Positions 3,550 to 24,811 of a DNA stretch of 32,000 bases are shown here, in pieces. Within the stretch, counting starts at the first letter, position 1. Each line of letters begins with the position of its first letter. The notes below the pieces were generated by a model. It worked only from the letters and a program-made list of their open reading frames with translations. It was not told the DNA's origin and did no database searches. The DNA comes from Microcystis aeruginosa NIES-2549 (GTDB lineage: Bacteria; Cyanobacteriota; Cyanobacteriia; Cyanobacteriales; Microcystaceae). The stretch spans positions 180,001 to 212,000 of the forward strand of contig NZ_CP011304.1 of NCBI RefSeq assembly GCF_000981785.2. Reading direction: 5' to 3'. Both the position numbers and the translations under genes were made by a program.

Positions 3550-3798
3550 TTACTGGGATGATTGGATTTTACTAACATTGAGAATACTTAAACCAATGAT
3601 CTTATCCGCTTGATAACGAATAATCACATCATTATCTGTTAATTCGCTATCATCCGCAGGTAAAGATGGTTGATAAAAATTAATATACAAAATATCTGCT
3701 TTTGCATCATAAGCTGTCCAAAAATCTTGCTGAGGCAGAGCGTGAATCATCTTGGCGAAGTTAAGATAAGATTGAATATTAATGCTAGTTATGGCCAT
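3550..3798 (-). CDS. DUF2283-family small protein (putative antitoxin-like partner)
   Basis: 82 aa. YDAKADILYINF...DNDVIIRYQADKIIGLSILNVSK fits the DUF2283 pattern (YD.eaD.lyi ... G.ei). It overlaps the upstream 100-aa ORF by 10 nt. Confidence 0.6.
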   Translation of the reverse strand: MAITSINIQSYLNFAKMIHALPQQDFWTAYDAKADILYINFYQPSLPADDSELTDNDVIIRYQADKIIGLSILNVSKIQSSQ

Positions 3799-4091
3799 AT
3801 TTGTTTCCTCTTGGTTAATTCACAAAGAAGACGGGTTAAATAAGCAGTAATAATAAATCCCTCATCTAATAATTCTCGATAAACAACGATTAGATATTTT
3901 CCAGAAACTATTTGTTTAACTGCCAACAATTCCTGCTGGTTTCCTACTAGGATTTTCTCAGGATAGCGGATGGTTTCCAATATCTCCGCTTGATACGATA
4001 CTAATTCACTATGTCCACTGATAATGTGTTTCCATCTCTCCTCTGTCAGACGAATTAAAACCCCATTCTGAGAAGTTGTATGGAGATTCAT
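3789..4091 (-). CDS. Small conserved hypothetical protein, putative toxin-like partner of the DUF2283 gene (DUF4258/BECR-like; family uncertain)
   Basis: 100 aa containing LTEERWKHIISGHSEL...KYLIVVYRELLDEGFIITAYLT. It is AT-rich and translationally overlapped with the downstream DUF2283 ORF. Confidence 0.5.
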   Translation of the reverse strand: MNLHTTSQNGVLIRLTEERWKHIISGHSELVSYQAEILETIRYPEKILVGNQQELLAVKQIVSGKYLIVVYRELLDEGFIITAYLTRLLCELTKRKQIWP

Positions 4092-4146: not shown

Positions 4147-6048
4147 TTATTCCACCGTGACACTTTTGGCTAAATTGCGCGGCTGATCCACGTCTAAACC
4201 GCGACGAGCCGCGATATGATAGGAGAGCAATTGTAGGGGAATTACCGTTAAAATTGGCGATAATAATTCCTCAACTTCTGGCACATACAACAAATCATTA
4301 AAGACTTTTGGTGCTTCCGTATCGCTATCGGCAACTACTCCCAATAATCGCGCATCCCTTGCTTTTGCTTCCTGTGCATTGGAGAGAACTTTATCATAAA
4401 CTACCCCCGGCATCGCAATCGCTACTACGGGAACTTTTGCATCTAAAAGCGCGATTGGTCCGTGTTTCATTTCTCCGGCTGGATAGCCTTCGGCATGAAT
4501 ATAACTGATTTCTTTGAGTTTTAAGGCCCCTTCTAAGGCAATGGGGAAATTAATCCCCCGTCCCAAGAAAATAAAGTCTTGGGTGTCATTAAATTCATGG
4601 GCCAATTCTTCGATCGCTTTTTCCTGTTTTTCTAAGACAGTTTCGATCAACCTTGGCAGCGATCGCATTTGATTAATAATTTGCTCGATTCTCTCTAAAG
4701 ACAAAGTTTGACGACGATAGGATAAATCCAAAGCTAAGAGATAAAAACCCAATAACTGGGCGGTAAAACTCTTAGTTGCGGCCACCCCGATTTCGATCCC
4801 CGCTTGGGTATTAATAATCTGATCGACCATTTGTGCTAGGGTACTTTCGGGGCGATTAGTAATCCCGATAATCCGGGCCTGATATTTTTTTCCTAATCCT
4901 AAACGACGCTGTTTTTCTGTTTCCAACGCCGCTAAAGTGTCGGCTGTTTCCCCCGATTGCGTCACCCCGATGGTTAAAGTATTGGGCATCAGGGGGGTGG
5001 GTGCATAGCGAAATTCCGAGGCGTACTGTACTCTTGTGGGAATACCTGCCAACTGCTCAATCAAGTATTTACCGACTAAACTGGCGTGCCAACTGGTTCC
5101 ACAGGCTAAAATCTGAATATGTTCTAAATTATCGTAAATTTCTTCAGAAAAATTAATATTTATCGGGTTGACATTATCCCCATTTTGTGCTGTCCAATGG
5201 GGATGCAGATAGGTCCCTAAACAGTCGCGCACCACTCCTGGTTGTTCGTAGATTTCCTTGAGCATGAAGTGACGATAACCCTGTTTTTCTACGGTGGTCG
5301 GACTCCAATCGAGGACTCTGGGGCTTTTACGGACTCTTTTTCCCTCAAAATTATAAATTTCTACTCCCAAGGGTGTTAAGCGAGCGATTTCGCCATTATC
5401 CAAGGACAGCACCGCCCGGGTATGGGGAACCAAAGCACTGACATCGGAGGCACAGAAAAACTCCCCCTGACCAAAACCGATGATTAAAGGGGCGTGTTGC
5501 CGCACGACAATCAATTCATCGGGATAATCGGGACTAATTACCGCTAGGGCAAAAGCACCCTCTAAACGTTCAATTGCCTTTAAAACTGCCTTGAGGAAAG
5601 GACTCACCCCCAAGTCTTCTTCATCGCTAGGTTTGGGTAAATAACTGGCGATTAGATGGGGAATAACTTCTGTGTCGGTTTCTGAGTCAAATATACAGCC
5701 TTTTTCCTTTAATTCTGTTCTTAATGCCTGAAAGTTTTCGATAATGCCATTCTGTACCACTGCCACCCGTTGACTGTTATCGGTGTGGGGATGGGCATTA
5801 CTTTCTACGGGTTTGCCGTGGGTTGCCCAACGGGTGTGACCGATGCCAATTTGGGAGGGATTAACTTCCTGTTCTAATTTTTCCCGCAGATTGTAGAGTT
5901 TTCCCTGGGCGCGGACTCGATGTAATTCACCTTCGAGAATTGTGGCAATCCCTGCCGAATCATAACCCCGATATTCCAAACGTTCCAAACCAGCTAGGAG
6001 AATATCGATCGCTGTTTGGGTTCCGATATAGCCAACAATTCCGCACAT
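4147..6048 (-). CDS. glmS: Glutamine--fructose-6-phosphate aminotransferase (isomerizing)
   Basis: MCGIVGYIG N-terminal nucleophile motif, two SIS domains and a C-terminal LAKSVTVE. The track ORF starts 4 codons upstream (MSERM), but GlmS needs Cys as residue 2, so the start is set at 6048. Confidence 0.95.
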   Translation of the reverse strand: MCGIVGYIGTQTAIDILLAGLERLEYRGYDSAGIATILEGELHRVRAQGKLYNLREKLEQEVNPSQIGIGHTRWATHGKPVESNAHPHTDNSQRVAVVQNGIIENFQALRTELKEKGCIFDSETDTEVIPHLIASYLPKPSDEEDLGVSPFLKAVLKAIERLEGAFALAVISPDYPDELIVVRQHAPLIIGFGQGEFFCASDVSALVPHTRAVLSLDNGEIARLTPLGVEIYNFEGKRVRKSPRVLDWSPTTVEKQGYRHFMLKEIYEQPGVVRDCLGTYLHPHWTAQNGDNVNPININFSEEIYDNLEHIQILACGTSWHASLVGKYLIEQLAGIPTRVQYASEFRYAPTPLMPNTLTIGVTQSGETADTLAALETEKQRRLGLGKKYQARIIGITNRPESTLAQMVDQIINTQAGIEIGVAATKSFTAQLLGFYLLALDLSYRRQTLSLERIEQIINQMRSLPRLIETVLEKQEKAIEELAHEFNDTQDFIFLGRGINFPIALEGALKLKEISYIHAEGYPAGEMKHGPIALLDAKVPVVAIAMPGVVYDKVLSNAQEAKARDARLLGVVADSDTEAPKVFNDLLYVPEVEELLSPILTVIPLQLLSYHIAARRGLDVDQPRNLAKSVTVE

Positions 6049-6204
6049 TCTTTCGCTCACCCCATTTAGGCTAAGTCCGATCTATTCTATCGCAAGCGTG
6101 GCGCTTGTTTGCTTAGAGCCTAAAGACGCAGGGGTAAGGGTAAAGTTTCCCCTATAGGAGAGTGGGGTGTGGGGAGAATAAATAAAAGCAATATAGATCA
6201 CTCA

Positions 6205-6567
6205 GCAGCACACTTTGTTCTTTTTGTCAAAAAAACTTTCTCTTTGCAACAAAACTACACAATTAATTGATCAACGGGTTGGCTTAAAAAAGGCTCTTTA
6301 ACTGCCATTTATTGCTGTTGCTGAATAGGTGAGTGTAGATTTAGCAAGGGTTTTCAGGATCACCAGACAGCTAAAAACCCTAAAAAGCACAGAAAAACCC
6401 ATCATTTCATACCGCGAAATTATACCATAATCGCTGGAAGTATTGCAACCTCGTAAACAAATGAGAATTATTTTCAATAAATTCTTAAGAAAAGGTAAAT
6501 ATTGCGAAATGTAAATTCAAATATTCTCAACTATTAACGCTTGTTTGATATAAAAAACTTATAAAAG
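6205..6567 (+). repeat. Direct repeat copy 1 (~363 bp, AT-rich), left flank of the nuclease-methyltransferase cassette
   Basis: Collinear with 9035-9399. By eye there are roughly 14 substitutions plus one or two 1-nt indels, about 95% identity. Confidence 0.95.
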
Positions 6568-6612
6568 ATAATTAAGTAGGTGGGTGGAATTAAATATAAG
6601 ATGAACGTAGAA

Positions 6613-6678
6613 CGTAGGTTGGGTTGAAGCATGAAACCCAACCCCCGCACGGGTTACGCTACCGCTAACCCATCCTAC
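6613..6678. repeat. Nested palindromic element (GTAGGTTGGGTT...AACCCATCCTAC type)
   Basis: The outer arms are GTAGGTTGGGTT and AACCCATCCTAC (11 of 12 complementary). Inner hairpin 1 is GTTGGGTT-gaagcatga-AACCCAAC and inner hairpin 2 is GGGTTA-cgctaccgc-TAACCC. A related arm sequence occurs at 17792-17856. Confidence 0.7.
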
Positions 6679-6800
6679 AAATAATTGTGCCTACCTACCC
6701 AACTTCACGGCAGGTTAATGGTAAGTATTCAAAGTTAATCGGTCTGATTTTCCCCTGAGTAAGGAAGATTTATCGAAACTATCACAAACAGTGCTAACCC

Positions 6801-9026
6801 ATGAATCATATTTTTTCTGCTATTGATTTTCAGGCAATTAAAAATCACCCTAACTTTAAGGAAGACAGCGTTAGAGAAGTGATTATTTTACCTCTTTTAA
6901 CAAGTTTGGGCTACCAAGAGGATAATATCGAAAGAAGTAAAACCCTACGGCATCCCTTTTTAAAGGTTGGCAGTAAAAAACGTCCGATAAATTTAATTCC
7001 TGACTATGTTCTCAAAGTTAATCAAAGTTATGCTTGGGTATTAGAGGCTAAAAAACCAACGGAAAATATCTACGAAGGTGATTCAGTAGAACAGGTCTAT
7101 AGTTATGCCACTCATCCTGAAATCAGAAGTAATTATTTTGCTCTTTGTAATGGCCTAGAATTTAGTTTATTTAAGACCCTCGATACCAGTACACCTATCT
7201 TATATTTTTCTCTTGATGCAATTGCCGATAGTTGGCAAGAGTTGACCCAGTATTTAGCCCCAGATAGATTTCAAGTGGGGAAAAGTTTTAGTTATCAAAG
7301 CCATTCCCCAATCAGTCGCAAAACTTTTGACTACTCAAGTCGTCCCTTATTAGAACCAATTGAGGTAAAAAAACAACAAGCTAAAAGACATTTTGGTGTT
7401 CATGGATATTTTACTAAACAAGCATGGAATGTGGTGGCAGAATATATTAAAAACTTTAGTCAACCGGGAGATGTCATTCTTGATCCTTTTGGCGGTAGTG
7501 GAGTGACGGCAATTGAAGCTTTAATGAATAACCGCAAAGCGATTAGTATTGATATTAACCCTCTGGCTATTTTTCTTGTTAATTCTTTAATTAGTCCCGT
7601 TGATTTTGATGATTTAAGTCAGGCTTTTGAACGAGTTAAATTAGCCTACCAAGAGCGAGAACCGCAAACCAAAGAGGAAATAACAAAGATTCTCAATACC
7701 TATCCTTATCCCCAAGGTTTGAAACTGCCTAAAGGTTCTGATGTGGCTACTGTTGAACAGTTATTTAGTAACAAACAATTAGCTCAACTAAGTTTATTAA
7801 AACATTTGATTAAACAAGAACTAAACGAGAATGTTAGAGAGTCTTTATTGTTAGTTTTTTCCAGTACAATCAATAAGTATAATTTGACTTTTCATTACAC
7901 AAGAAGTGCGGCGGGGGGTGATAGTTCTGTATTTAGATATTATCGCTATAGAATTGCTCATGAACCTGGAGAAATGCCCTTAATAAAAATTTATGAAACT
8001 AAATTTAAAAAACTTGTTGCAGCTAAACAAGAAATGGAGTTTTATGTTAATAAAAACACCATCAACTATGCCAAAATTGTTAAAGGAACAGCGACAGACT
8101 TAAATTTTATTGAAAATGAAAGCGTTGATTATATTTATACCGATCCTCCCTACGGAAAGAAAATTCCCTACTTAGATTTATCAATAATGTGGAATGCTTG
8201 GTTAGATTTAGAAGTGACGGAAAAGGACTATCAATTAGAAGCTATTGAAGGTGGAACAATCCAAAAAAGTAAACAGGAATATAATCAATTAATTGCCCAA
8301 AGTATTCGAGAAATGTATCGGGTTTTAAAATTTGAGCGATGGTTATCCTTTGTCTTTGCTCACAAAGATCCTGAGTTTTGGCATTTAATTTTAGATACGG
8401 CAGAAAGTTGCGGATTTGAGTATGTGGGAGCAGTGCCACAAAAAAATGGACAAACGAGCTTTAAAAAGCGGCAAAATCCCTTTACAGTTTTATCAGGACA
8501 GTTAATTATTAATTTTCGGAAAGTTCCCACTCCCAAAGCGGTAATGAAAGCTAACTTAGGCATGGATATCACCGAGATTGTCATGCAAACTGTTGAAGGA
8601 ATTATTGCTAAAAATGATGGGGCAACCCTAGAACAAATTAACGATGAATTGATTATTAAAGGTTTGGAATTAGGGTTTTTAGATTTACTAGCCAAGGAGT
8701 ATTCAGACTTGACTCCAATTTTGTTAGATAATTTTGATTATGAGGAAAAGACTGAATTATATACCATCAAAAAAGATAGTAAGTTTAAGTCAAAAATCGA
8801 TGTTAAATTGAGAATTAAATACTATTTGATTAGCTATTTGAGAAGGATGGAAAGAGATAATAAAAGCTCTAGTTTTGATGATATTGTTTTTAATATATTA
8901 CCTCTGTTAAAAAATGGCACAACTCCCGAAAATCAGACGATTCTAAGCGTCCTCGAAGATATTGCCCAGAGAGTTGGTGATGATAACTGGCGCTTAAAAC
9001 AAGAAGGACAATTGAGTTTATTTTAA
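6801..9026 (+). CDS. Fusion protein: N-terminal HsdR_N-like PD-(D/E)xK nuclease domain + DPPY-type DNA (probably N6-adenine) methyltransferase + ~200-aa C-terminal region of unknown function
   Basis: 741 aa. The N-terminus reads KEDSVREVIILPLLTSLGY...LIPDYVLKVNQSYAWVLEAKKP...YFALCNGLEFSLF, giving a D-x13-ExK spacing and an HSDR_N-like layout. SAM motif I is ILDPFGGSGVTAIEA (~aa 226). Catalytic motif IV is DYIYTDPPYGKKIPYLDLSIMWNAWL (~aa 443). GC is roughly 33%, well below the neighbouring genes. Confidence 0.75.
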   Translation: MNHIFSAIDFQAIKNHPNFKEDSVREVIILPLLTSLGYQEDNIERSKTLRHPFLKVGSKKRPINLIPDYVLKVNQSYAWVLEAKKPTENIYEGDSVEQVYSYATHPEIRSNYFALCNGLEFSLFKTLDTSTPILYFSLDAIADSWQELTQYLAPDRFQVGKSFSYQSHSPISRKTFDYSSRPLLEPIEVKKQQAKRHFGVHGYFTKQAWNVVAEYIKNFSQPGDVILDPFGGSGVTAIEALMNNRKAISIDINPLAIFLVNSLISPVDFDDLSQAFERVKLAYQEREPQTKEEITKILNTYPYPQGLKLPKGSDVATVEQLFSNKQLAQLSLLKHLIKQELNENVRESLLLVFSSTINKYNLTFHYTRSAAGGDSSVFRYYRYRIAHEPGEMPLIKIYETKFKKLVAAKQEMEFYVNKNTINYAKIVKGTATDLNFIENESVDYIYTDPPYGKKIPYLDLSIMWNAWLDLEVTEKDYQLEAIEGGTIQKSKQEYNQLIAQSIREMYRVLKFERWLSFVFAHKDPEFWHLILDTAESCGFEYVGAVPQKNGQTSFKKRQNPFTVLSGQLIINFRKVPTPKAVMKANLGMDITEIVMQTVEGIIAKNDGATLEQINDELIIKGLELGFLDLLAKEYSDLTPILLDNFDYEEKTELYTIKKDSKFKSKIDVKLRIKYYLISYLRRMERDNKSSSFDDIVFNILPLLKNGTTPENQTILSVLEDIAQRVGDDNWRLKQEGQLSLF

Positions 9027-9034
9027 ATCCAGTG

Positions 9035-9399
9035 GCAGCACACTTTTTTCTTTTTGTCAAAAAAACTTTCTCTTTGCAACAAAACTACACAATTAATTGA
9101 TCAACGGGTTGGCTTAAAAAAGGCTCTTTAACTGCCAGTTGTTGCTGTTGCTGAATAGGTGAGTGTAGATTTAGCAAGGGTTTTCAGGATCACCAGACAG
9201 CTAAAAAGCCAAAAAAGCACAGAACATACCATCACTTCATACTGCGAAATTATACCATAATCGCTGGAAGTATTGCAACCTCGTAAACAAATGAGAATTA
9301 TTTTCAATAAATTCTTAAGACAAAGATAAATATTGCGAAATGTAAATTTAAATATGCTCAACTATTAACGCTTGTTTGATATAAAAAACTTATAAAAAG
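9035..9399 (+). repeat. Direct repeat copy 2, right flank of the cassette
   Basis: Begins 8 nt after the stop of the 741-aa ORF and is collinear with 6205-6567. Confidence 0.95.
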
Positions 9400-9441: not shown

Positions 9442-10008
9442 TTACACAGGAATGACAACTGCTGTTAAAGCGGCAGTAACCGCGTCCATCGGTTGATTAC
9501 CGTCGATATGGTTAAGAGTCCCCTTTTGACCGTAATAATCTAAAACGGGGGCAGTTTGGTCGATATAAACCTGTAGGCGACGGGCGATGGTTTCTTTAGT
9601 ATCATCTTGACGACCCCGTTGCATGAGACGCTCAATTAAGACCGTATCTGGTACAGCCAAATTAACCACAAATGTGTAACTATCGGCCAATTCTTCCAGT
9701 AATGCGTCTAAAAAGCTCGCCTGTGCCACCGTGCGGGGAAACCCATCAAGAATCCAACCCTTAGCACTGTCAGGCTGTTTTAAACGTTCCTGAATTAAAC
9801 CTAATAACAACTCATCGGGGACTAATTCGCCCTTTTCCACATAAGCTTGTGCTTGTTGACCAAGTTCTGTCTTCTCTGTAATTGCTTGACGTAAAATTTC
9901 ACCGGTAGAAATATGGGGAATCGTCAGAGATTCCGCTAATTTTGCCGCTTGGGTACCTTTTCCCGATCCGGGCGGTCCCAAAAATATCACACCGATCCGT
10001 TTGCTCAT
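9442..10008 (-). CDS. adk: Adenylate kinase
   Basis: 188 aa with P-loop GPPGSGKGTQA. It lacks the zinc-lid cysteines (short lid) and sits directly after secY. Confidence 0.95.
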   Translation of the reverse strand: MSKRIGVIFLGPPGSGKGTQAAKLAESLTIPHISTGEILRQAITEKTELGQQAQAYVEKGELVPDELLLGLIQERLKQPDSAKGWILDGFPRTVAQASFLDALLEELADSYTFVVNLAVPDTVLIERLMQRGRQDDTKETIARRLQVYIDQTAPVLDYYGQKGTLNHIDGNQPMDAVTAALTAVVIPV

Positions 10009-23803: not shown

Positions 23804-24811
23804 CTACTGGCCGCTGGAAAAATTGTAACGTATTCGTTCACGGGTTTCCATTAATAGCTGACCGAGCATATTCAATCCAGTTCCATCTCCACCATCACCC
23901 CAGTATCTATCATTTTTTGTATGCTCAATCAGCGTTAGATCACCGGTTGAAAGTATCTTTTCAGTTAAGTCAGGATGTTGTGTAAATTTGGCATATAGAG
24001 CCTCTCGCATCACATCATCTTTTATGATTTCCCAATCTCGACGCAGTGGTCTGCGACGATCCCGTCCCATCTCGGCCGCTTCTCGTGCTGTTTTGGCTTG
24101 TCGAATTTCTTCTTCATGAGGAGTATTAACAAACTTCTGAGCCTGAAAGTAATGTTCTGAGGTAGGCCATATTCTATCTTTTAGATGGATTGGGTATGGT
24201 GCAAAGTTCGAGAAAAACCCGTAAGGCTTATTTAAATGGTAAAACTTAATAGGCTCACTCAGAGCGTCGCTTGTATAGTCGATAGCATACTTCGCTAGAG
24301 TTGTTTGGATAAGTGTATTAATTTCCCGAGGAAGTGTTGCAATACCTCCGCCAATTGCATAACCTGGTATTGAGCTTTGATTTTGCCATCCTAAAACATC
24401 CCATCCCTGATCAAGCAGAAACTTTATATATTCCAAGTCAGATTCAACAACTTGTTGGTGAGTACGTCCGCCATAATCACTGTAAGTCATTGTAGTAATG
24501 GGAGCAATTTGCAAACGCCTTTGTAATGTGGAGTATTTACCTCCCATCAGAGACTCCATCGCTTGCATGACCGCTGCTTGATTGGCTCCTGATGTATTAG
24601 TATTCCAATGACCGGATTCATAGGTCTGGTGAATTGTGACAGTTTGAGCATAGTTAGCCGAGTAGGTGATAGCAACACCAGGGGATCCTATACTGATCAG
24701 CTTTTGTGCTTCAGCAATAATAGCGAGAGCTTGATCAAATGCGGAAAGATTGTTTCCGCTTTCGTCTTTGTAAGGCAAGTAAAAATTGAATAAACTTCCC
24801 ATGATAAGCAC
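23804..24811 (-). CDS. Two-domain protein: unassigned N-terminal domain (~185 aa) + C-terminal NADAR (YbiA/DUF1768) domain
   Basis: The C-terminal half reads FYHLNKPYGFFSNFAPYPIHLKDRIWPTSEHYFQAQKF...RDWEIIKDDVMREALYAKFTQHPDLTEKILSTGDLTLIEHTKNDRYWGDGGDGTGLNMLGQLLMETRE, which matches the NADAR/PF08719 consensus. The start is either the GTG at 24811 or the ATG at 24802. Confidence 0.8.
   Translation of the reverse strand: MLIMGSLFNFYLPYKDESGNNLSAFDQALAIIAEAQKLISIGSPGVAITYSANYAQTVTIHQTYESGHWNTNTSGANQAAVMQAMESLMGGKYSTLQRRLQIAPITTMTYSDYGGRTHQQVVESDLEYIKFLLDQGWDVLGWQNQSSIPGYAIGGGIATLPREINTLIQTTLAKYAIDYTSDALSEPIKFYHLNKPYGFFSNFAPYPIHLKDRIWPTSEHYFQAQKFVNTPHEEEIRQAKTAREAAEMGRDRRRPLRRDWEIIKDDVMREALYAKFTQHPDLTEKILSTGDLTLIEHTKNDRYWGDGGDGTGLNMLGQLLMETRERIRYNFSSGQ

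Follow-up and report, generated by a model that had tools for sequence, protein, structure and literature searches.

Which kind of enzyme is encoded by a gene that joins a restriction-type nuclease to a DNA methyltransferase in a single polypeptide and stands alone in its genome neighborhood? The question is raised by a locus of the cyanobacterium Microcystis aeruginosa NIES-2549, in which a stretch of 32,000 nucleotides (contig NZ_CP011304.1, positions 180,001 to 212,000; here called the window) carries a gene for a protein of 741 amino acids (aa) between glmS and adk. A first-pass annotation of the DNA had described this gene as an unusual fusion without helicase, specificity subunit or partner gene. 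In this study, we closely examined the gene and found that its product consists, in this order, of a PD-(D/E)xK nuclease domain, a methyltransferase split by an internal insert, and a helical C terminus (Table 1). Judged by its full-length homologues, of which more than 120 with 67 to 97% identity are among the matches listed, it is a genuine conserved gene and no chance open reading frame (ORF). We consider it probable that the protein is a single-chain restriction-modification (R-M) enzyme that works like enzymes of type IIG/IIC, on a different methyltransferase scaffold, with a target specificity that seems to lie in a small exchangeable cassette.

Existing annotations do not capture this architecture. 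Databases name the homologues variously "DNA methyltransferase", [quoted passage not shown] or, in several JGI entries, RsmD/Trm11, the last of these in our view wrongly. None of the REBASE-derived models of PADLOC matched the 741-aa protein end to end, no curated NCBIfam model covered it, and the literature searched for a fusion of HSDR_N/PF04313 with N6_N4_Mtase/PF01555 or COG1743 did not describe such an architecture. A structure model calculated from 63 sequences, including relatives at 37 to 48% identity, reached a mean predicted local distance difference test score (pLDDT) of 84.6 and a predicted TM-score (pTM) of 0.81; an earlier model from 25 close homologues (pLDDT, 58.7) was set aside as too poor. 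Foldseek searches with the entire model returned generic methyltransferase cores only, and no solved structure matched end to end (TM-score normalized to the query, ≤0.21).

The N-terminal domain resembles the nuclease domains of HsdR and MmeI. The first-pass annotation had noticed a PD...ExK arrangement in an HsdR-like context; the stretch in question, PDYVLKVNQSYAWVLEAK, corresponds to aa 67 to 84 and contains the catalytic motif (P67, D68, E82, A83, and K84). Both the motif and its assignment held up in profile searches, in which the Pfam model HSDR_N (PF04313) matched aa 65 to 128 of the whole protein with 28.3 bits, above its cut-off of 25.1, and the N-terminal domain alone with 33.3 bits. 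Upon isolation of the domain from 16 family members, HSDR_N matched all 16, HSDR_N_2 matched 11, and MmeI_N matched 5, and the isolated nuclease domain was also recognized by the PADLOC model REase_MTase_IIG (E value, 1.9e-7). The catalytic motif is followed by a QxxxY motif; in type I HsdR subunits, this motif is the third one of the nuclease. In the structure model, the domain is built in the order alpha-beta-beta-beta-alpha-beta (helix at aa 21 to 36, strands at aa 69 to 73 and 76 to 83, helix at aa 94 to 103), the pattern of PD-(D/E)xK nucleases. A profile search against the PDB weakly aligned PD, (D/E)xK, and QxxxY with their counterparts in McrC and in BpuSI, a type IIG enzyme (E values for the catalytic motif, 0.2 to 0.4).

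Both active sites are intact in practically the whole family. D68, D/E82, and K84 are present in 201 of 201 homologues each. Together with E21, Q98, and Y102, they are retained in 198 to 201 of the 201 close homologues and are invariant in 50 of 50 sequences that include relatives at 37 to 41% identity. When the methyltransferase motifs are added, D68, D/E82, K84, Q98, Y102, FGGSG, and DPPY each occur in 193 to 201 of 201 sequences.

The second module is a methyltransferase with an unusual order of its parts. Motif I (LDPFGGSGVT, aa 227 to 236) and motif IV (TDPPY, aa 447 to 451) follow each other as announced by the first-pass annotation, with a gap of 211 aa in place of the approximately 215 aa given there. 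N6_N4_Mtase (PF01555) matched with 63.7 bits at positions 144 to 213 of its 221, i.e., with its motif-I half only, because the methyltransferase is permuted relative to ordinary PF01555 (beta-class) enzymes: its S-adenosylmethionine (AdoMet)-binding half comes first, the insert second, and the catalytic half last. Around motif I, PDB profiles of RsrI, MboIIA, and CcrM matched; D228, G231, G232, and D251 are invariant among the homologues, and DPPY is found in 200 to 201 of 201 sequences. From the DPPY motif, the methylated base is probably N6-adenine. Strands 1 to 4 of the core were placed at aa 225 to 228, 246 to 251, 424 to 428, and 442 to 447 in the model, and the approximately 170 aa between strands 2 and 3 (aa 254 to 423) are modeled as a mainly helical insert. 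Structurally, E. coli Dam matched best, within the confines of the core; Dam belongs to the alpha class and contains an internal recognition domain.

A likeness to COG1743/DUF1156 methyltransferases, which the first-pass annotation had noted, was also apparent in the searches. The PADLOC model for PglXI covered aa 314 to 573 (E value, 2.9e-42; profile positions 375 to 621 of 919 only), the NCBIfam model DUF1156_antiphage (NF042963) matched aa 320 to 606 (E value, 1.5e-7; 30 bits against a cut-off of 1000), and the REBASE-type MTase_II models in PADLOC reached E values down to 1.6e-36 for the whole protein. The insert alone matched PglXI (E value, 2e-4) and REBASE-type MTase_II models (E value, 8.8e-6).

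The C-terminal region (aa 576 to 741) had been proposed as a target-recognition or winged-helix module. Of this proposal, the winged-helix part is reflected in the model as a pattern, two units of helix-helix-helix-hairpin that look winged-helix-like, and the recognition part is disfavored: with column conservation mostly at 0.75 to 0.96, the region ranks with the best-conserved stretches of the sequence. It is common to relatives without the N-terminal nuclease. Searches of the region against Pfam, PADLOC, and PDB sequence profiles gave no match, in keeping with the earlier remark that the last ~200 aa lack a recognizable motif. The insert, which separates motif II from motif III, belongs to the least conserved stretches and is likely the better candidate for specificity, since the C terminus is strongly conserved and the insert holds a mosaic cassette.

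This cassette (aa 352 to 404) stands out in close comparisons. The homologue from Microcystis wesenbergii (P0002) is 49% identical to the window protein within the cassette and 96% identical outside it, i.e., identity is bimodal. At the DNA level, Microcystis strains with the gene at the same locus are 58 to 77% identical in the tract from ~7821 to 8060 and 87 to 100% identical in the remaining gene. Among the 201 sequences, at least 15 cassette alleles were distinguished, two of them major ones with 93 and 58 members, and all positions that tell these two apart lie within aa 352 to 401. Identity outside the cassette is 0.764 within an allele and 0.754 between alleles, which indicates that the cassette has been exchanged independently of the remaining protein. 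Its ends are invariant (N361, T363, H365, and Y381-R-Y-R384), and variation in both sequence and length is found in the loop that they enclose. Two metagenome bins, possibly chimeric, hold two copies of the gene each, one of Desulfococcaceae (L050 and L066) and one of Prevotellaceae (L073 and L074), and in both bins the two copies carry different alleles. Such a pattern is expected of a specificity determinant, and the cassette is a candidate for this role.

We analyzed whether the gene has partners and found it solitary, as claimed before. It is flanked in the window by glmS (4147 to 6060, minus strand) and adk (9442 to 10008, minus strand), the latter followed by secY and ribosomal protein genes. 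DUF3067 and the nearest homologues likewise point to Microcystis as the source of the window. No restriction or defense gene was present among the ten ORFs scanned at 21 to 31 kb of the window, no hsdM or hsdS gene was found in the window, and Pfam detected no helicase family in the protein. Clustering of all ORFs of at least 70 aa within 4 kb of the gene at 70 genome loci yielded no recurrent partner: the most frequent neighbor family occurred at 8 of 70 loci, and the surroundings of the gene in Microcystis, in Geminocystis, and in a Sphingobacteriales genome are unrelated. In the 234 bp upstream of the gene within the window, no plus-strand ORF of at least 25 aa exists; with this empty stretch and no recurrent neighbor, a conserved small partner or controller gene is ruled out.

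The gene has been horizontally acquired and is present or absent between Microcystis populations. In the window, a DNA segment of 2,468 bp, made up of the 234 bp upstream and the gene, is enclosed by two direct repeats of 362 bp that are 96% identical. Three Microcystis metagenome contigs (L094, L091, and L093) represent the empty site, with glmS, one 362-bp copy, and adk contiguous; in L094, the single copy lies at 6036 to 6397, with the two outer junctions collinear to those of the window. In other Microcystis genomes (L005 and L097), the site is filled and the 362-bp segment duplicated in the same way. The gene thus arrived between glmS and adk by "insertion with long target duplication", leaving the flanking genes intact. 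R-M genes are described to move in this way without transposase or integrase, Microcystis included (PMC2853133). Scans for Rfam families, tRNAs, and terminators in and around the inserted DNA found nothing, so the direct repeat is no tRNA-type integration site. Carriage by a phage or plasmid was ruled out as well (no phage match and no full-length plasmid match).

Composition and distribution also mark the gene as mobile. The inserted DNA and the gene have 33 to 38% GC, compared with 44 to 55% in the flanking genes of the window, and the gene's GC content was below that of its flanks at 32 of 36 loci (means, 35% and 40%). A scan of one genome per species identified a relative in 427 species of more than 12 phyla; the best 80 of these 427 are 63 to 98% identical over the whole length. 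Among the hosts are Cyanobacteria, Bacteroidota, Ignavibacteria, Chlorobi-group bacteria, Nitrospirae, Planctomycetes, Desulfobacterota, Alpha- and Gammaproteobacteria, Dehalococcoidia, Endomicrobia, Leptospiraceae, Acidobacteria, Armatimonadota, Caldisericales, and WOR-3.

Relatives with other architectures place the fusion in a wider setting. A search of representatives clustered at 50% identity returned 396 proteins at an E value of 1e-30 or better. Among these and further homologues, some, like a protein of 581 aa (P0154), have the methyltransferase, insert, and tail and no additional domain, and some (P0173 and P0194) contain a second, fused methyltransferase. A sister family of ~780 aa (P0136, P0140, P0143, and P0290 to P0362) shares the methyltransferase, insert, and tail, lacks the N-terminal nuclease, and ends in a domain of ~190 aa, listed as PF27126, with an invariant H, G...E, D, and FExE. 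This domain matched no PDB profile and no Pfam model (in a Pfam copy without PF27126); that it may be a BamHI-like D...ExE nuclease is a guess. In a more distant relative of 816 aa (P0193), residues 649 to 793 matched a PADLOC model of a type II restriction enzyme (E value, 7e-12). P0193 thus represents a second, independent fusion in this clade, whose methyltransferases have by these assignments acquired nuclease-type modules on at least two occasions, at either terminus; this supports an R-M fusion as the reading of the window protein. The nuclease module is found without the methyltransferase, too: proteins of 291 to 307 aa from the Nostoc plasmid pNPM4 (L098:4328-5203) and an Acidithiobacillus caldus megaplasmid (L099:5028-5951) contain a nuclease domain that is 43 to 46% identical to that of the 741-aa protein, with all catalytic motifs, and an unrelated C-terminal part of ~140 aa in place of a methyltransferase.

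Among known systems, the closest functional counterparts are R-M enzymes of types IIG, IIC, and IIL, like BpuSI, MmeI, and Eco57I. As in these, one polypeptide combines an N-terminal PD-(D/E)xK domain with an amino-methyltransferase and recognition elements and has no helicase, the nuclease domain is homologous (MmeI_N, the PADLOC type IIG model, and the BpuSI alignment), and, as for MmeI, the gene is able to stand alone. The first-pass suggestion of an atypical type IIG/IIC-like enzyme is the best-supported reading, with both active sites conserved; for its other suggestion, a methylation-dependent or self-regulating nuclease, nothing in our analysis spoke. The differences lie outside the nuclease domain, beyond which no type IIG model or structure matched. 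Type IIG enzymes are described as gamma-class methyltransferases that carry a cleavage domain at the N terminus and owe their specificity to a separate S subunit or to a domain at the C terminus (PMC3874165). In contrast, the 741-aa protein does not show the gamma-class succession of motifs X and I to VIII followed by a C-terminal target-recognition domain or S subunit; it has a methyltransferase of the PF01555 family, whose putative recognition insert follows strand 2 and precedes strand 3, and a conserved helical tail, and with Dam as its best structural match it departs from classical gamma-class type IIG enzymes, as had been noted before. Type I HsdR subunits share the N-terminal region (HSDR_N and HSDR_N_2 matches and conserved D...(D/E)xK...QxxxY), but the window protein has no SF2 helicase/translocase and no HsdM or HsdS, and its nuclease is fused directly to the methyltransferase.

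The methyltransferase itself is closer to enzymes of bacteriophage exclusion (BREX) and related systems. In BrxXI, strands 2 and 3 of the Rossmann core are separated by a large insert, and helical, DNA-binding-like domains come after the core (PMC12839542). The window protein shares with BREX type 3 PglXI/BrxXI the big insert at this position and, by its pattern in the model, has a helical region following the core. It differs in lacking the 4-Cys zinc finger (its only two cysteines, C116 and C537, lie outside the insert), in its shorter C-terminal tail (~165 aa versus 280 to 300 aa), in the presence of an N-terminal nuclease, and in the absence of BrxC, PglZ, and BrxHII neighbors; an operon with BrxC, PglZ, BrxHII, BrxF, and BrxA, as in BREX type 3, is lacking. 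The tail has a pattern of two winged-helix-like units, and no sequence match backs its homology to the C-terminal domains of BrxXI. A survey of BREX diversity reported no insert homologues outside BREX (PMC12839542); the matches of the isolated insert to PglXI (E value, 2e-4) and MTase_II (E value, 8.8e-6) indicate that stand-alone relatives of the insert exist. With the DUF1156 (COG1743) methyltransferases of DUF499-centered, BREX-related systems, the protein shares the clade and the extended motif IV region; unlike them, it scores below the curated cut-off, has no DUF1156 N-terminal domain according to Pfam, and has no DUF499 or Snf2 helicase-nuclease neighbors. As to its mode of insertion, the gene resembles R-M genes inserted with long target duplications (Nobusato 2000, as cited in PMC2853133, and Furuta 2010, PMC2853133) in its low GC content, the lack of another mobility gene, and flanking repeats that are single in the empty site. 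Its duplication of 362 bp is longer than the 26 to 103 bp given in the table rows at hand of PMC2853133.

A single-chain R-M enzyme of this type could work as follows. The insert, possibly together with the C-terminal helical units, would read a specific DNA sequence, and the methyltransferase would mark the sites of the host. Foreign DNA without the modification would be cut nearby by the N-terminal nuclease, which the same recognition module would bring into position. Two molecules would probably join for double-strand cutting, since each chain has one catalytic site; cooperation of two molecules has been proposed for type IIG enzymes (PMC3874165). A swap of the cassette would change the specificity, and the gene would spread as a selfish or defensive unit.

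The solitary gene could instead encode an orphan or regulatory DNA methyltransferase, with a nuclease-like domain that does not cut and serves DNA binding, dimerization, or site selection. There is neither a partner nor a second methyltransferase, the very high conservation across phyla is more like that of conserved orphan methyltransferases than of diversifying restriction enzymes, and sources annotate the protein simply as "DNA methyltransferase". Inactive domains, however, normally lose their catalytic residues, and here these are kept in 198 to 201 of 201 sequences and in relatives at 37 to 41% identity; moreover, a patchy distribution, presence and absence within Microcystis, and low GC content are features of an accessory gene and not of a housekeeping regulator. 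We therefore regard this explanation as unlikely, although it is the most serious competitor. Lower still we rate the idea that the nuclease, against which methylation would shield the host, serves the mobility or maintenance of its own gene, be it by homing-like insertion or by post-segregational killing. The minimal insertion with its 362-bp target duplication, the empty sites in the population, and the spread over more than 12 phyla without a recognizable vehicle would agree with this idea, as would the proposal that R-M genes move likewise (PMC2853133). Against it, the insertion sites differ entirely between lineages, so that there is no homing target. The idea also overlaps with an R-M function, as selfish behavior is known for ordinary R-M systems and the same two activities are required.

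That the protein belongs to a dispersed BREX type 3 or DUF499/DUF1156 "BR" system, with ATPase, helicase, or PglZ partners elsewhere in the genome, appears very improbable to us. The homology of the core and part of the insert to PglXI and DUF1156 enzymes, and the position of the insert between strands 2 and 3 as in BrxXI (PMC12839542), is what suggests such a role. BREX and BR genes are tightly clustered, though (PMC12839542), and the 70 loci have no conserved neighbor. The match to the PglXI profile is partial (375 to 621 of 919), the protein with its two cysteines has no 4-Cys zinc finger, the fused nuclease is already an effector, and the inserted DNA carries one gene alone. Hardly any weight remains for an RNA methyltransferase of the RsmD/Trm11 type. 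DPPY is found in N2-methylguanosine (m2G) RNA methyltransferases, too, the Pfam models Cons_hypoth95 (33.9 bits) and UPF0020 (36.7 bits) exceed their cut-offs, and Trm11 structures are among the top structural matches; yet the two Pfam matches are limited to the generic motif-I region (aa 221 to 320), DNA methyltransferase models score far better, and fusion to a restriction-type nuclease, patchiness, and horizontal transfer do not suit an enzyme of the translation apparatus.

Several observations weigh against a single-chain R-M enzyme and temper our preference for it. The PDB sequence matches of the nuclease domain are weak (E values, 0.05 to 0.4), and the tRNA m2G methyltransferases (Trm11) almost equal Dam in structural E value. 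For a restriction enzyme, end-to-end identities of 63 to 77% across phyla are exceptionally high, and variation in the C-terminal region is minimal. If the site is asymmetric, as it may be, a single methyltransferase puts the protection of both strands in question, and the two-copy observation shares the weakness of its metagenomic source. Finally, the family is widespread yet uncharacterized, with activities that are predicted for all of its members.

Beyond the individual enzyme, we tentatively propose that the family forms an unrecognized class of single-chain R-M enzymes on a scaffold of the BrxXI/DUF1156 type, with an internal recognition insert in which a self-contained cassette of ~50 aa, swapped among genes that are nearly identical elsewhere, would set the specificity; the window protein would be its founding example. 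We hold this to be a possibility with somewhat less than even chances. If true, the class would depart from the type IIG enzymes described so far, all of which have a gamma-class scaffold, i.e., the one-protein solution of nuclease plus methyltransferase would have arisen on a second methyltransferase scaffold. It would also form an evolutionary link between classical R-M enzymes and BREX-type methyltransferases, offer a simple stand-alone relative for the methyltransferases of BREX type 3 and BR systems, and represent a compact scaffold for retargeting. A near-invariant body of 740 aa is here combined with a small hypervariable cassette of at least 15 natural alleles, and this contrast is the property behind the use of the MmeI family in predicting and engineering specificity. 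For Microcystis biology, it would be a further accessory restriction gene whose presence varies between bloom populations. The locus also shows in clean form an insertion that duplicated a 362-bp target.

Table 1. Features of the nuclease-methyltransferase gene and its insertion site (nucleotide positions in the window)
Feature	Position	Strand	Basis
Whole gene, 741 aa plus stop codon, ATG start	6801..9026	+	ORF list and translation; full-length homologues at 63-98% identity
PD-(D/E)xK nuclease domain, HsdR_N/MmeI_N type, aa 1-160	6801..7280	+	Pfam, PADLOC, structure model
Catalytic motif PD...(D/E)xK (P67 D68 ... E82 A83 K84)	6999..7052	+	Conservation
QxxxY motif (Q98...Y102)	7092..7106	+	Q98 in 201/201, Y102 in 200/201 sequences
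Linker between nuclease and methyltransferase, aa 161-190	7281..7370	+	pLDDT <50 at aa 163-173
AdoMet-binding half: strand 1, motif I (LDPFGGSGVT, nt 7479-7508), strand 2 with D251	7371..7559	+	Pfam, PDB profiles
Insert subdomain between core strands 2 and 3, aa 254-423, putative target-recognition domain	7560..8069	+	Structure model
Exchangeable cassette, aa 352-404 (VFSSTINKYNLTFHYT...FRYYRYRIAHEPGEMPLIKIYETKFKK), putative specificity loop	7854..8012	+	
Catalytic half, aa 424-575: strands 3 and 4, TDPPY (nt 8139-8153), strands 5-7	8070..8525	+	
C-terminal helical region, aa 576-741	8526..9023	+	Pattern in structure model, high conservation
Left direct-repeat copy (duplicated target)	6205..6566	.	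Repeat search, pairwise alignment
Inserted DNA, 2,468 bp (234 bp upstream plus gene)	6567..9034	+	Comparison with empty sites L094, L091, L093
Right direct-repeat copy	9035..9397	.	Begins 8 nt past the stop codon

The linker that joins nuclease and methyltransferase carries large insertions or deletions in the homologues from Geminocystis and Cyanobacterium. Both 362-bp repeats contain a promoter-like site (TTGCAA, a spacer of 18 nt, TATAAT, and an upstream TG) on the minus strand, at 6448 to 6419 and at 9278 to 9249. The left copy points toward glmS and the right copy antisense into the 3' end of the methyltransferase gene; such sites are no more frequent in the region than in shuffled sequence.

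Further observations concern other genes of the window and of related genomes. Beside glmS, two small overlapping genes (3550 to 3798 and 3789 to 4091, minus strand) encode a DUF2283 protein and a 100-aa protein without family; the pair is kept in M. wesenbergii (L005) and may be toxin-antitoxin-like. The same M. wesenbergii contig contains a type I restriction system with HsdR and HsdS fragments (L005:1-1628) ~6 kb past glmS, and the stretch of the window that matches this region encodes elongation factor P (EF-P) and a zinc-type dehydrogenase and has no hsd genes. At 23804 to 24811 (minus strand), a 335-aa protein has a C-terminal NADAR domain after an N-terminal part of ~190 aa without assignment. 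Lastly, the upstream part of the insertion includes an element of ~85 bp (6614 to 6698) with a GTTGGGTT...AACCCAAC hairpin. The element recurs in opposite orientation downstream of the right repeat in other Microcystis genomes (L008, L009, L088, L090, and L095) and looks like a small mobile repeat.

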